A DNA stretch of 38,759 nucleotides. Source: Escherichia phage mEpX2. The notes below the pieces were generated by a model. That model ran no database searches, had not been told where the DNA came from, and saw nothing but the letters and a program-made list of their open reading frames with translations. Both the position numbers and the translations under genes were made by a program. The DNA is taken from sequence record NC_019705.1; one strand, written 5' to 3'. Numbering within the stretch: the first letter of the stretch is position 1; every line of letters starts with the position of its first letter. Positions 19,691-29,526 of the stretch are shown in pieces.

Positions 19691-19899
19691 AGCTGCCGCA
19701 ACCATGCCGTATGCAAGAGCATGACTGCGGCTGACTGGCTCACGTCCGATAGTGCGAGTATTGAATGATTTCCAGCCGTTACCGATTTTACTATGTTTTC
19801 AGTAGAACGCTTAGACAAAACTGAGGCGCACAAAGCTTTGCACTGGATTGCAAGACTTTGTGCTCTTCTGTGGATGTGTGTCTACATGTTTGAAGATTG

Positions 19900-19915
19900 T
19901 TGTGCCGTATTTGTG
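19900..19915. repeat. 16-bp direct repeat TTGTGCCGTATTTGTG (putative integrase arm-type site, copy 1)
   Basis: Exact repeat of 20117-20132; flanks att core. Confidence 0.4.
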
Positions 19916-20023
19916 ACATACACATGGCAACATCATGCATCAACTTTCTGTTTGTGCCATCAACTATAGATTAGTGAATGCGGTTAATGCTTGCTAAACA
20001 GATAGTTATGATTGGTGCTACAG

Positions 20024-20069
20024 ATTCGTAATGCGAAGGTCGTAGGTTCGACTCCTATTATCGGCACCA
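20024..20069 (+). other. attP core: 3' 46 nt of tRNA-Thr(CGU) (thrW-like), ending CCA
   Basis: ATTCGTAATGCGAAGGTCGTAGGTTCGACTCCTATTATCGGCACCA matches anticodon loop through acceptor 3' end; 5' half of tRNA absent; integrase gene 14 bp downstream. Confidence 0.65.
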
Positions 20070-20083
20070 TTTAAATCAATAAG

Positions 20084-21244
20084 TTACCTAGCATTTAAGT
20101 AAACTACGTTCTCCTCTTGTGCCGTATTTGTGCCATTGCGACTTATAATCGCATCGATTTTGCTCGCGTGCTCGGTGAGATGCCCGGCTGAAAGGTGGGC
20201 GTATCTTTGAACCATTTCGAGAGTTTCCCATCCTCCCATCTCTTTAAGTGCAAGAAGAGAGACACCGGACTGAACCAGCCAGCTTGCCCAAGTATGCCTC
20301 AGGTCATGGAAGCGGAAGTTGCTAATGCCTGCCCGCTTTAACGCTCCCTTCCATGCCTTGTTGCTGTCGGTTCTCATCTTCCTTACCGCTGCTGTTTTTG
20401 TTCCGTCGCTTCGGTAGGCAGGTTTGGTGTGGACAAACACCCATCTCTTATGGAGACCCTGCTGTTTTCTTAATATCTGGCATGCGGTTTCGTTAAGAGG
20501 AACTCCGATCGCATTGCCAGCTTTTGTTTCATCAGGGTGCATCCATGCCATTTTCTTATCCAGATCGACCTGTGACCACTCAAGGTCTGTAACGTTGGAA
20601 CGGCGAAGGCCTGTCGTGATTGCAAACATGACCACAGGGAAGAAATGAGGAGCAATTTCTGCAAACAGGCGCTTCGATTCCTCCTCTGTAAGCCATCTGA
20701 TCCGTCCATTCTTAACGCGTGGTGTTGATATTTTTGGCGCCCTGTCAAGCCATCCCCATTCAACAGCCATATTGAGAATAGCGCGAAGTATTGCCAGATG
20801 CCGCGTCTTCGTTCCTTTGCTTGCCAGCTTTGGTTTATACTCCGGCACTGGCTTGCCAAGCCGCAAACACCTGTCCCGGCTCATTTCCCAGTTCAGGCGA
20901 TGGCGGCGGTTTTCCATCCCGTCTACCGCCTCCATTATTTTTTCTGATGTTATGTCTGAGAGAATGGTTTCTCTGAAGTGCAACATCCAGAACGATATAA
21001 TGCTCTTGTCATCATCAATGGACTTCTTATCCGATTTCTCACGCAGCCACCGTATGCAGGCTTCCTTGAATAGCTTTTTCGGTGATTCCCCGAGATTTTT
21101 TACTCTCCACGCTTCTGCTTTCAGACGATCGTGAAGTTCTTGCGCTTGCCTTTTGTCCGATGTTTCAAGAGAGCGTCTAACTCTTGATCCATCTGGCGCG
21201 ACGAAATCACAGTGCCACGTGCCACCGCGTAGTTTGATTGACAT
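20084..21244 (-). CDS. int: tyrosine integrase (P22 Int-like)
   Basis: 386-aa ORF with HDLRHTWAS and RYAHL catalytic motifs; adjacent to tRNA-derived att core. Confidence 0.9.
   Translation of the reverse strand: MSIKLRGGTWHCDFVAPDGSRVRRSLETSDKRQAQELHDRLKAEAWRVKNLGESPKKLFKEACIRWLREKSDKKSIDDDKSIISFWMLHFRETILSDITSEKIMEAVDGMENRRHRLNWEMSRDRCLRLGKPVPEYKPKLASKGTKTRHLAILRAILNMAVEWGWLDRAPKISTPRVKNGRIRWLTEEESKRLFAEIAPHFFPVVMFAITTGLRRSNVTDLEWSQVDLDKKMAWMHPDETKAGNAIGVPLNETACQILRKQQGLHKRWVFVHTKPAYRSDGTKTAAVRKMRTDSNKAWKGALKRAGISNFRFHDLRHTWASWLVQSGVSLLALKEMGGWETLEMVQRYAHLSAGHLTEHASKIDAIISRNGTNTAQEENVVYLNAR
20117..20132. repeat. 16-bp direct repeat TTGTGCCGTATTTGTG (putative integrase arm-type site, copy 2)
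   Basis: Exact repeat of 19900-19915; lies within 3' end of int coding sequence. Confidence 0.4.
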
Positions 21245-21468
21245 GCTTTAACCTCCTGCACATCAACCGCATTCACCGCGCTATTGTGTCTTACAGACTT
21301 AAGCGCCGCAATGCAGTCTGACTTGCAAATGCGATATGGGCTTTTAGGTTTATCTGGATTTATCTTTGCGGCCTGAAGTCGTCCACTTCGTATCCACTGC
21401 GTGATAGTGCCTTTGTCTACCTTCAGATACGACGCTGCCTCTTCACGAGTGAAGATTTCTTCTTCCAC
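21121..21468 (-). CDS. xis: excisionase
   Basis: 115-aa ORF upstream of and overlapping int; GTG start with GGAGA SD; HTH-like N-terminus. Confidence 0.55.
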   Translation of the reverse strand: MEEEIFTREEAASYLKVDKGTITQWIRSGRLQAAKINPDKPKSPYRICKSDCIAALKSVRHNSAVNAVDVQEVKACQSNYAVARGTVISSRQMDQELDALLKHRTKGKRKNFTIV

Positions 21469-28487: not shown

Positions 28488-28649
28488 ATGACAAAACGTC
28501 GTAAGAAATACCAGGAAAAAGAAGAGATTCGACACCCTGATTCACCTGAGGGATTAGTGGTAGCCGCAGCAAATAACAGGGCGTTCGCAGAGCGCCTTGT
28601 TGGTGTTTACAGACTAGCCAAAGCAGGAGTGAAACATGGGCGTCGTTAA
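28488..28649 (+). CDS. hypothetical small basic protein
   Basis: 53-aa ORF below track cutoff; SD AGGAG 7 nt upstream; stop overlaps start of replication initiator. Confidence 0.3.
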   Translation: MTKRRKKYQEKEEIRHPDSPEGLVVAAANNRAFAERLVGVYRLAKAGVKHGRR

Positions 28650-29526
28650 GTTAGCTGATTACAGGCATAACCCTGTACAACATCAGGAGGCATCCAGTAT
28701 GGGGTATGTCTCTATACACCGCCAGTTTATGGACAGCAGGCTCTATAAGGACTCTCAGGCAGTACATCTTTGGCTTCACTTAATCCTCAAGGCTAATCAC
28801 AAATCTACTGTCGTCAATACGGATATCGGGCCGATAACTGTTGATCGCGGTCAGATGATAACTGGACGCCCGTCGCTGGTCAGAGAAACATTCATCCCCG
28901 ACAACAAAGTTCGGAGCTTATTACGGACTTTTGAGTCGAAAGGGATGCTTAATATTTGCTCGATGGGGAAGAAATTTAGCCTGTTTACAATCGTTAAATA
29001 TGACGATTTTCAGGCAAAAAATTGTCCAACGGTTGTCCAACGGTTGTCCAACGCAAACACCAGTAATGGCGCGGCTCTCAGCGGAGATTGTCCAACGGTT
29101 GTCCAACAGTTGTCCATAAACAATAATATAAATAATATCTCTAATACTGACGTATTAGAGAGTGCTACAGCAGACAAAAAGTCTGACAAGAAAAAACCTT
29201 CCGTCAGCTGTCAGGATGTTGTCGATGCTTACCACGAAATCCTTCCTGAAGCGCCAAGAATCCGCGCACTGAATGACAAGCGTAAAAACCAGATCCGAAC
29301 GTTCTGGCGCAAAGCCGGAGTGATAACCCGCCAGCTTGACGGGCATGGGTTCACGATGCAGGACTGGAGAAATTATTTGAGCTACGTAGGCGAAAATTGC
29401 CGATGGATGTTCGAAGAACGCCCAAACCATCAACGCGGAACCGTCTGGCACAAAAAGGGATTTGATTTCCTGCTTAACGACAATACCTACCTGAAAGTTC
29501 GTGAGGGTGAACACGATGACCGATAA
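28636..29526 (+). CDS. replication initiation protein (O-like)
   Basis: 296-aa ORF containing internal origin iterons, followed by helicase gene. Confidence 0.75.
   Translation: MGVVKLADYRHNPVQHQEASSMGYVSIHRQFMDSRLYKDSQAVHLWLHLILKANHKSTVVNTDIGPITVDRGQMITGRPSLVRETFIPDNKVRSLLRTFESKGMLNICSMGKKFSLFTIVKYDDFQAKNCPTVVQRLSNANTSNGAALSGDCPTVVQQLSINNNINNISNTDVLESATADKKSDKKKPSVSCQDVVDAYHEILPEAPRIRALNDKRKNQIRTFWRKAGVITRQLDGHGFTMQDWRNYLSYVGENCRWMFEERPNHQRGTVWHKKGFDFLLNDNTYLKVREGEHDDR
29032..29128. repeat. replication origin iterons (6 x TTGTCCAACGG-like, 11-bp period) with adjacent AT-rich segment
   Basis: Two clusters of three tandem 11-mers at 29032-29064 and 29098-29128 inside O-like gene, then AT-rich 29129-29160. 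Confidence 0.7.

Follow-up and report, generated by a model that had tools for sequence, protein, structure and literature searches.

Between its tail-fibre gene and its integrase gene, the coliphage mEpX2 carries a piece of a host tRNA gene flanked by short direct repeats, and this raises the question of what the locus does and how it is organised. We analysed the complete stretch of 38,759 nucleotides (NC_019705.1, hereafter the window), and the explanation that we hold with high confidence is that positions 19900-20136 constitute the phage attP, a lambda-style complex attachment site. The mEpX2 attP is an ordinary, already catalogued type of site. It fixes the insertion target of mEpX2 and its relatives, the thrW gene, and matters little beyond correct annotation. 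What the present analysis adds is a testable map for an SfX-type integrase, made of five candidate arm-type sites, a candidate IHF site and a probable crossover region, for which no published counterpart was found in the literature searched. Such a map could be used for thrW-targeting integration vectors and for studying the divergence of arm specificity under a constant core specificity.

The sequence at 20024-20069 on the plus strand (ATTCGTAATGCGAAGGTCGTAGGTTCGACTCCTATTATCGGCACCA) is identical at 46 of 46 positions to the 3' part of thrW, the tRNA-Thr(CGU) gene of Escherichia coli MG1655, a match that starts with the final base of the anticodon stem's 5' strand and runs through the anticodon loop to the CCA end. 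As an exact string (ATTCGTAATGCG...GGCACCA) it is found in the window, in the phages P22, L, SfII, SfV, HK446 and mEp213, and in MG1655. The same 46 nucleotides have been published as the attP, attL and attR core of SfI, SfII, SfV, SfX and P22 (PMC3636060), and this published core is identical to that of the experimentally mapped SfI, SfX and P22 sites. Both the thrW identity and the published cores designate 20024-20069 as the common core. Within it, the segment ATGCGAAGGTCGTAGGTTCGACT (20031-20053, plus strand) has exactly the sequence of the 23-bp feature that the records of P22 (BK000583) and phage L label as the attP core. Taking over the P22 assignment, we infer that the crossover region of the mEpX2 integrase lies in this segment, with its predicted core-type sites and strand-exchange (overlap) region.

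The initial annotation had read 20024-20069 as the 3' half of thrW deprived of its 5' half, and it had named a full-length tRNA gene as the finding that would speak against an attachment site. ARAGORN predicted 0 tRNA genes in the whole window, and Rfam returned no tRNA match over 19750-20250, even at E <= 1; the locus therefore holds no complete cloverleaf and is not a functional tRNA gene. A decayed 5' half was rejected as well, since the 30 nucleotides upstream of the core, read base by base by hand, have about 9 of 30 positions in common with the 5' half of thrW, the level expected by chance. These results make it extremely improbable that the fragment belongs to a functional phage tRNA or tRNA-like RNA instead of a recombination site, a reading that could draw on the 81-nt 'tRNA-like fragment' annotated around the same core in phage L.

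Since a phage may contain fragments of host origin and recombination cannot be demonstrated from the window alone, the tRNA fragment might be seen as the passive scar of an imprecise excision in a phage integrating at another site. Host genomes already contradict this scenario, whose chances we regard as negligible. In at least 140 E. coli genomes the phage/host junction falls exactly at window position 20024, the edge of the fragment, with the integrase gene beside a restored tRNA-Thr. At least 80% of the int-side query is covered in 148 records (147 genomes), and among the examples listed the match begins at 20024 and runs over tRNA-Thr and integrase annotations. The gene order in E. coli 536 is proA, tRNA-Thr (thrW), mEpX2-type integrase and xis, and the order proA, tRNA-Thr, int recurs in many other genomes, which places the integration downstream of proA; the tRNA is restored by it, as first proposed. 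The attL junction was thus found in E. coli 536 and many other genomes, the attR junction in strain C1, and the matching empty attB, once reconstructed, was recovered as one uninterrupted match of 100% identity in 106 E. coli genomes. Moreover, PCR and sequencing have placed the integration of SfX at thrW, and SfX shares the core, is 96% identical over the P arm (from -215 to the core) and has the Int given as closest relative in the HK446 and mEp213 records. A different integration site, the second finding that the initial annotation had named as contrary evidence, was not encountered either, and the prophages map to thrW.

Aligning attP with the host thrW loci, as had been suggested for locating attB, also refined the limits of the core. 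The 46 nucleotides initially delimited stand as the tRNA-derived part, and the host identity in fact extends 3 nucleotides past the CCA: because the empty attB is intact in 106 genomes, and in agreement with the attR of strain C1, the attP/attB identity amounts to 49 bp (20024-20072, plus strand), that is the core plus TTT. The record PV340544, a prophage-ordered version of mEpX2 from an MG1655 lysogen, starts and stops at the core and has the host-type bases GC directly before ATTCGT at its left end. The window, by contrast, runs through the core without interruption, and its vegetative or circular arrangement was correctly recognised from the outset; an attP at this place accounts for the order tail fibre, att, int, xis of the free phage. 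Chromosomal matches with a seemingly intact attP in E10 and EC596 were considered as counter-evidence and set aside, being attributable to a permuted or tandem prophage assembly and to a decayed remnant keeping a P' stub.

The recombinase gene adjoins the core. The int gene (20084-21244, minus strand) encodes a tyrosine integrase of 386 residues (Pfam Phage_integrase, E=1e-34), in the alignment of which the RRSN, HDLRH and RYAHL motifs are recognisable, and its stop codon begins 14 bp beyond the CCA of the core, the distance originally reported. The protein belongs to the lineage of the SfX, HK446 and mEp213 integrases. Counterparts 99-100% identical to it occur in 15 phage records, and this level of identity also holds for the integrases of HK446, HK75 and mEp213; the HK446 and mEp213 records describe theirs as similar to SfX Int. 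Its identity to P22 and SfV Int is 54-55%. The earlier label of a P22-like integrase is therefore loose, the protein being only 54% identical to P22 Int. The xis gene (21121-21468, minus strand), whose 3' end overlaps the start of int, encodes an excisionase, or directionality factor, of 115 residues (Pfam HTH_17) that is 42% identical to P22 Xis and annotated as excisionase in HK446 and PV340544. Possible Xis targets are TGGCAA at 19924 and ATGCAT at 19935, or else the TTGCA repeats at 19836-19862.

The close relatives of mEpX2 share this module as a block. HK446, HK542 and mEp213 carry a near-identical site annotated as attP (94-99% identical over 19700-20200), with the wording 'attP; similar to thrW and ptwF' in their records. 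Nucleotide identity over the P arm, core and P' arm reaches 94-100% with HK446, HK75, HK542, mEp213, mEp043 and SfX, and the arms of HK75, HK542, mEp213 and ECP1 are 96-100% identical to those of mEpX2. The sole difference concerns the neighbouring cargo, a tail-fibre gene in mEpX2 and gtr genes in SfX. With an integrase at least 99% identical in 15 phage records and both arms alignable as DNA, mEpX2 belongs to the SfX-type int-att module. By its core identity and its thrW integration, it also belongs to the broader group of thrW-targeting att sites that comprises P22, SfI, SfII, SfV, SfX and CP4-6. The last of these, a cryptic prophage of E. coli K-12, occupies the same thrW site and is bounded by thrW as attL and by the pseudo-tRNA ptwF as attR. 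The element is decayed, its integrase is a different one, and to the right of the core it diverges from mEpX2 after 48 bp.

The repeats on both sides of the core were examined next to the claim that an exact 16-bp direct repeat flanks it. Positions 19900-19915 and 20117-20132 indeed both read TTGTGCCGTATTTGTG, and the shorter motif TTTGTGCCAT is present at 19951-19960 and 20127-20136, as announced. The positions hold, whereas the single repeat unit does not: the repeat extends to 20 nucleotides at 95% identity (19900-19919 against 20117-20136) and resolves into two tandem 9-bp sites with a spacing of 11 bp. The total is five direct copies of TTGTG(C/A)C(G/A)T, of which the P arm holds three and the P' arm two. 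The repeats do lie on both sides of the core, with the qualification that the right-hand pair is located in the int coding sequence and not in intergenic DNA. An unbiased count returned TTGTGCC as the top repeated 7-mer of the region, and sites of this type stand at -124, -113, -72, +93 and +104 from the core start.

We designate these copies, all on the plus strand, as candidate Int arm-type sites. P1 (TTGTGCCGT, 19900-19908) and P2 (TTGTGACAT, 19911-19919), 11 bp apart, align in MAFFT in register with TTGGGACAA and ATGGGACAT of P22, respectively, and the candidate P3 (TTGTGCCAT) occupies 19952-19960, its P22 equivalent ATGGGACG being 11-12 bp nearer the core. The putative P'1 (TTGTGCCGT, 20117-20125) and P'2 (TTGTGCCAT, 20128-20136), both within the int coding sequence, have offsets of +93, where P22 has TTGGGAC, and of +104, as in P22. 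Together, P'1 and P'2 encode the Int residues NGTNTAQ on the minus strand.

The concentration of these motifs is a local property. On the plus strand of the 38.8-kb window, TTGTGCC occurs only four times, always within 19900-20134. A search of the whole window for TTGTGCCRT with one mismatch gave no enrichment, 21 matches against 20.7 expected, and the signal therefore lies in local clustering, not in the motif count. The enrichment being purely local, the whole-window count was replaced by a sliding-window test. Among 3,788 background windows of 296 bp, 25 contained a 7-mer repeated at least four times, all of them at one other locus, the replication-origin iterons, and 28 contained an exact direct repeat of at least 16 nucleotides.

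Comparison with P22, L, SfV and SfII gives these repeats a likely function. P22 possesses the 46-nt thrW core without a change, the annotated 23 bp included, and the same gene order of att, int and xis. The architecture is also alike: two arm copies stand in tandem about 125 bp to the left of the core, the P arm holds a third copy, an IHF-like AAATCAAnnnnTTA closely follows the core on its right, and a second tandem, at +93 and +104, lies in the int 3' end. P22 and L have TGGGAC copies at -126, -115, -61, +93 and +104, while SfV and SfII, at the same offsets as P22 and L, carry TGAGAC in the P-arm pair and TGGGAC in the other copies. Between mEpX2 and these four phages, four of the five arm sites thus have offsets that are equal or within 2 bp, and the third P-arm copy is 11-12 bp off; MAFFT aligns the arm sites of mEpX2 and P22 in register as TTG[T/G]G[C/A]C. 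P22 attP was reportedly characterised by Smith-Mungo et al. (1994), a study said to define, together with Mattis et al. (2008), the arm-type and Xis sites of P22. From their layout, we take the P22 TGGGACA repeats to be the footprinted arm-type sites; a description of TGGGACA as arm-type was not found in the literature searched.

The two phages differ in several respects. Their Int and Xis are 54% and 42% identical, the arm word is TTGGGAC in P22 and TTGTGCC in mEpX2, the remaining arm sequence cannot be aligned by BLAST, and the TTTGCA repeats that P22 has between P2 and P3 find no obvious counterpart at that place in mEpX2. By its arm word and its integrase, mEpX2 falls outside the strict P22 Int/attP lineage. 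Judging from sequence comparison, the mEpX2 attP would function in the manner of P22 attP, although its lineage is the SfX type.

Since P22, L, SfV and SfII carry their own word at matching offsets, the comparison supports the view that the TTGTGCC repeats are arm-type integrase sites whose sequence diverged along with the integrase, and it lends positional support to the role suggested in the initial annotation. In an alternative, the locus is attP and the repeats bind Xis or another accessory protein, or are inert relics of duplication. Excisionase sites, too, are typically repeated in tandem with a spacing of one helical turn (PMC7498355), the TTGTGCC motifs are not spared by substitutions among relatives, and the P' pair may persist simply as coding sequence. 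The copies occur on both arms, however, whereas excisionase sites are normally found on one, and P22, L, SfV and SfII show the three-plus-two layout again, with another word that follows the integrase lineage. The arm DNA outside the motifs is otherwise unalignable between the TTGTGCC and TGGGAC lineages. The nucleotide positions of the P' pair are unchanged, moreover, despite an identity of only 24% in the encoded C-terminal tail. On this evidence, a role other than that of arm sites seems unlikely. Conservation within the lineage was of little help: all five TTGTGCC sites are identical in the aligned phages HK446, HK542, ECP1, mEp213 and SfX, and among 11 same-lineage P arms the motifs were not singled out, with 2 of 13 variable positions inside them against about 2.8 expected, a test made uninformative by the low divergence. 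No published binding or recombination study of an mEpX2-type integrase on TTGTGCC repeats was found in the literature searched.

A candidate IHF site, H' (AATCAATAAGTTA, 20074-20086, plus strand), follows the core and overlaps the int stop codon. It is a perfect match to the consensus WATCAANNNNTTR, of which the window contains only one other, and the AAATCAAnnnnTTAC sequence is kept in P22, SfV, the CP4-6 attL and EC596. CP4-6 thus retains it after the core, as mEpX2 does, in a sequence devoid of the TTGTGCC pair. The P arm showed no perfect IHF consensus and no convincing IHF site; CATCAACT repeats at 19938 and 19958 were considered and discarded as a poor fit to the consensus.

The phage lambda attP consists of P1, H1, P2, X1, X2, F, H2, C-O-C', H' and P'1-3, and its logic relies on a heterobivalent integrase, arm- and core-type sites, an IHF site that separates the core from the P' sites, and the location of int and xis beside att. 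The mEpX2 locus has the elements of a complex, lambda-type attP: an adjacent tyrosine recombinase gene with xis beside it, a core common to attB, prophages flanked by core-bearing attL and attR, and repeated candidate arm-type sites, three on the left and two on the right, distinct from the core. Lambda differs by its 15-bp core, as against a tRNA-gene target with 49 bp of identity in mEpX2, and by the number and orientation of its arm sites, which in mEpX2 are three plus two and all direct. Unlike those of lambda, the P' sites of mEpX2 lie within the int ORF, and the integrase is of another lineage.

With these elements, the following course of integration can be proposed. The C-terminal domains of a heterobivalent tyrosine recombinase would occupy the core-type sites in 20031-20053, and strand exchange would take place, as in P22, in a short overlap region of this segment, with P22 as the model for an expected 7-bp overlap within GGTCGTAGG. 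The Int N-terminal domain, about residues 1-65, would bind the five direct TTGTG(C/A)C(G/A)T sites, namely the P1-P2 tandem, P3 and the P'1-P'2 tandem in the int 3' end, and IHF bound at 20074-20086 would bend the P' arm, allowing Int to bridge arm and core. Integration yields an attL made of 30 host nucleotides (the 5' part) and 46 phage nucleotides, hence an intact thrW followed by int and xis, and an attR in which the tail-fibre side and the P arm are joined through the 46-nt fragment to the host flank. Xis, acting with Int, would reverse the reaction.

The arm words invite a further, more tentative proposal. In SfX-type phages the word is TTGTGCC, in P22-type phages and at most SfV/SfII sites it is TTGGGAC, and the SfV/SfII P-arm pair has TGAGAC. 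Integrase lineages acting on the same thrW core may have come to differ by a two-base arm code while four of the five arm sites, the int-embedded pair among them, stayed in place, and the resulting orthogonal specificity could allow tandem stacking at one tRNA gene without cross-excision. We regard this as possible and somewhat doubtful. Examples of prophages stacked at one tRNA gene are the YZ_2_2 junction, at which an SfX-type P arm and core are directly followed by P' arm and int of the SfV type, and the experimental SfI-SfX tandem. The N-terminal 30 residues of Int are slightly more diverged from P22 (47% identity) than the whole protein (54%), a difference too weak to be accepted as proof of a changed arm specificity.

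At the left boundary, the sequence shared with mEp213 and SfX starts at about 19814, and an imperfect 23-nt inverted repeat (19820-19871) marks the outer edge of the conserved att-int module. An Rfam match to mir-238 on the 19804-19892 hairpin was judged to be due to chance. The minus-strand RNA of the repeat folds at -26.6 kcal/mol (z = -3.3) and gives a weak terminator-like match on that strand. Its role may be that of a terminator or of a sib-like element acting on int transcripts; alternatively, it may provide protein-binding sites.

The core of the attachment site, window 20024-20069, reads ATTCGTAATGCGAAGGTCGTAGGTTCGACTCCTATTATCGGCACCA and is identical on alignment to Escherichia coli K-12 thrW at 46 of 46 positions, starting with the base that precedes the anticodon loop and running through the terminal CCA. 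On its 5' side, the adjoining 30 nt bear no likeness to a tRNA 5' half, in line with the initial annotation of a 3' thrW fragment lacking its 5' part. No full-length tRNA lies here: ARAGORN found no tRNA gene over the window, and an Rfam search gave no tRNA match. The 46 bases have been published as the core of SfI attP, attL and attR, and are identical in SfII, SfV, SfX and P22 (PMC3636060). Past the CCA end, the stop codon of int (20084..21244, minus strand; a 386-aa tyrosine integrase, Pfam Phage_integrase, E=1e-34) starts at a distance of 14 bp, as previously noted. The int start is overlapped by xis, which encodes a 115-aa HTH_17 excisionase.

Integration at thrW, between proA and yaiC, was established by PCR and sequencing for SfX (PMC3306764). 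This phage has the core and the P arm, left of the core, in common with mEpX2 (P arm 96% identical), and its Int is given in the HK446 and mEp213 records as the nearest relative of their integrases. A search of complete E. coli genomes gave 148 records, from 147 genomes, in which window 20000-20600 is covered to 80% or more. Among the matches listed, the alignment begins at query base 25, which is window 20024, and most are annotated beneath as tRNA-Thr and site-specific integrase. The order in E. coli 536 is proA, tRNA-Thr, int, xis, with the tRNA gene restored. At attR of strain C1, the P arm and the 46-nt core are followed by TTTTTTCTAATAAAATC. Joining proA-thrW to this attR host flank in silico gave a junction that is contiguous, at 100% identity, in 106 genomes and is for that reason the empty attB; together with C1 attR, it sets the phage/host identity at 20024-20072 (49 bp). 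Comparison with host thrW loci, the check suggested by the initial annotation, has thus located attB, and the junctions at 20024 and the E. coli 536 gene order place integration here and not at a different site.

The window had also been read as the vegetative arrangement. PV340544.1, an mEpX2 record derived from a lysogen of MG1655, matches it at 100% identity in permuted order. Its last base is window 20025 and it opens with GC followed by ATTCGTAATG; ATTCGT is preceded by GCGC in host thrW and by ACAG in the phage, the GC of PV340544.1 being of the host type. Because it ends at the core and carries host-type GC at its left end, PV340544.1 is a prophage excised at its two att junctions, attL and attR; the window therefore has the unintegrated order. 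The same region occurs in HK446 (98.8%), HK75, HK542, ECP1, mEp213 and mEp043, and three sister-phage GenBank records annotate 'attP; prophage integration site; similar to thrW tRNA gene and ptwF'.

As for the flanking repeats, the positions first described stand: TTGTGCCGTATTTGTG at 19900-19915 and 20117-20132, which a repeat finder stretches to 20 nt at 95% identity (19900-19919, 20117-20136), and TTTGTGCCAT at 19951-19960 and 20127-20136. The single 16-bp unit does not. When 7-mers were counted without a preset word across 296 bp spanning the core, TTGTGCC was the top repeated one. Counted from the start of the core, its copies (at most one mismatch), all on the plus strand, lie at offsets -124, -113, -72, +93 and +104 (19900, 19911, 19952, 20117 and 20128). 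Each copy of the 16-bp repeat thus resolves into a pair of 9-bp sites at 11-bp spacing, giving five sites in total with the consensus TTGTG(C/A)C(G/A)T. The rest of the window's plus strand has no TTGTGCC, and in all 38.8 kb a single further locus packs four or more copies of one 7-mer into 296 bp. The pair on the P' arm, right of the core, lies inside the int ORF and encodes NGTNTAQ in mEpX2 versus SVPNMSH in P22, both within Int C-terminal tails that are only 24% identical. Within the lineage, the motifs hold 2 of 13 variable positions versus about 2.8 expected, and are not spared.

The decisive comparison is with P22, L, SfII and SfV, which share the core and whose arms are unalignable with those of mEpX2. 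TGGGAC copies, presumably the arm-type sites of P22 (TGGGACA), lie at -126, -115, -61, +93 and +104 in P22 and L; in SfII and SfV these places hold either TGAGAC or TGGGAC. In the MAFFT alignment, TTGTGCCGTATTTGTGACAT falls in register with TTGGGACAAAAATGGGACAT (P arm), as does TTGTGCCGTATTTGTGCCAT with GTGGGACATATTTGGGACAG (P' arm). Most of the difference between the words is confined to two bases, TTG[T/G]G[C/A]C, and all but one of the five sites keep their positions despite this change. The organisation of P22 attP was reportedly worked out by experiment by Smith-Mungo et al. in 1994. P22 and SfV Int are 89% identical and either is 54-55% identical to mEpX2 Int, the N-terminus diverging just slightly more than the protein average. 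The word difference tracks integrase lineage, as would be predicted if the five repeats were arm-type sites recognised by the N-terminal domain of Int, and this supports the candidate status first given to them.

The P22 and L records annotate as attP core a 23-bp feature, ATGCGAAGGTCGTAGGTTCGACT, equal to window 20031-20053 and including the dyad CGAA...TTCG; this segment probably comprises the core-type sites and overlap region for mEpX2 Int. Between the core and P'1, the first P' site, a candidate IHF site, AATCAATAAGTTA (20074-20086), overlaps the int stop codon; it fits the IHF consensus perfectly, as does just one other place in the window. P22, SfV, CP4-6 attL and a decayed remnant in strain EC596 all retain AAATCAAnnnnTTAC. 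A search for an IHF site on the P arm found none. Int would bridge arm and core sites on IHF-bent DNA, with strand exchange inside the thrW variable-loop/T-arm region. The products would be attL, with intact thrW adjoining int and xis, and attR, with the P arm and a 46-nt pseudo-tRNA; Xis (42% identical to P22 Xis) and Int would drive the reverse reaction.

The att site and its flanking repeats are real, and the first reading, of an attP with candidate arm-type sites, is right. Such a site had been described before: near-identical phages carry the annotation, the core sequence is in print, and experiments on SfX confirmed the target. The sole increment is the site map for an SfX-type integrase, with the two-base arm-word difference at largely kept positions.

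Between P2 and P3, the second and third P-arm sites, ATGGCAA and CATGCAT stand 11 bp apart (19923-19940), at offsets -100 and -89, taken as equal to those of the P22 TTTGCA repeats (-99, -88); as a guess, they are possible Xis sites. The host flank just 3' of thrW in strain C1 (L012 1842-1870; also L020) reads TTTTTTCTAATAAAATCATCTGGTTAC and includes AAATCAnnnnGGTTAC, which resembles the phage IHF-like AAATCAATAAGTTAC shifted by about 8 nt. This likeness could have arisen by chance, or the flank may be an old one of phage origin.

An imperfect 23-nt inverted repeat (19820-19871) marks the outer edge of the conserved att-int module, homology with mEp213 and SfX beginning near 19814. Folding of the RNA from its minus strand gives -26.6 kcal/mol (z = -3.3), and a GUUUUGU run lies a few bases past the stem. 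In relatives, A to G at 19855 mends one mismatch and other substitutions break pairs. Both repeat arms contain TTTGTGC, a word also forming the arm-type motif, and TTGCA-like words at 19836, 19847 and 19857 have a spacing resembling the TTTGCA repeats of the P22 P arm. Lying beyond att on the downstream side of int, the element is reminiscent of lambda tI/sib; it could be tI/sib-like for int transcripts or provide extra protein-binding sites.

Natural tandem arrays occur at thrW in YZ_2_2 (NZ_CM146015.1, L019 1816-1990) and strain C1 (L011 1-1260). In the former, an SfX-type P arm and core are joined directly to the P' arm, with its TGGGAC sites, and the int gene of a prophage of SfV type, whose Int is 90% identical to P22 Int; in the latter, an SfX-type attL sits on a secondary thrW fragment behind the integrase of another island. 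Both match the experimental SfI-SfX tandem integration (PMC3306764). In EC596 (NZ_CP156718.1, L018 about 1600-1930), a decayed element retains the core with its P arm, along with an int 3' stub that has diverged and still holds CTGTGCCGC and TTGTGCCAT; it ends abruptly beside a truncated LysR gene and paoD. Despite its resemblance to an intact attP, it is a remnant.

At the one other window locus with such a repeated 7-mer, 29022-29116, (A)TTGTCCAACGG occurs six times, as two triplets with 11-bp spacing; the triplets stand about 66 bp apart, and an AT-rich stretch comes after them. Lying inside a 296-aa ORF (28636..29526, plus strand), the six copies look like replication-origin iterons within an initiator gene, as with lambda ori inside O.
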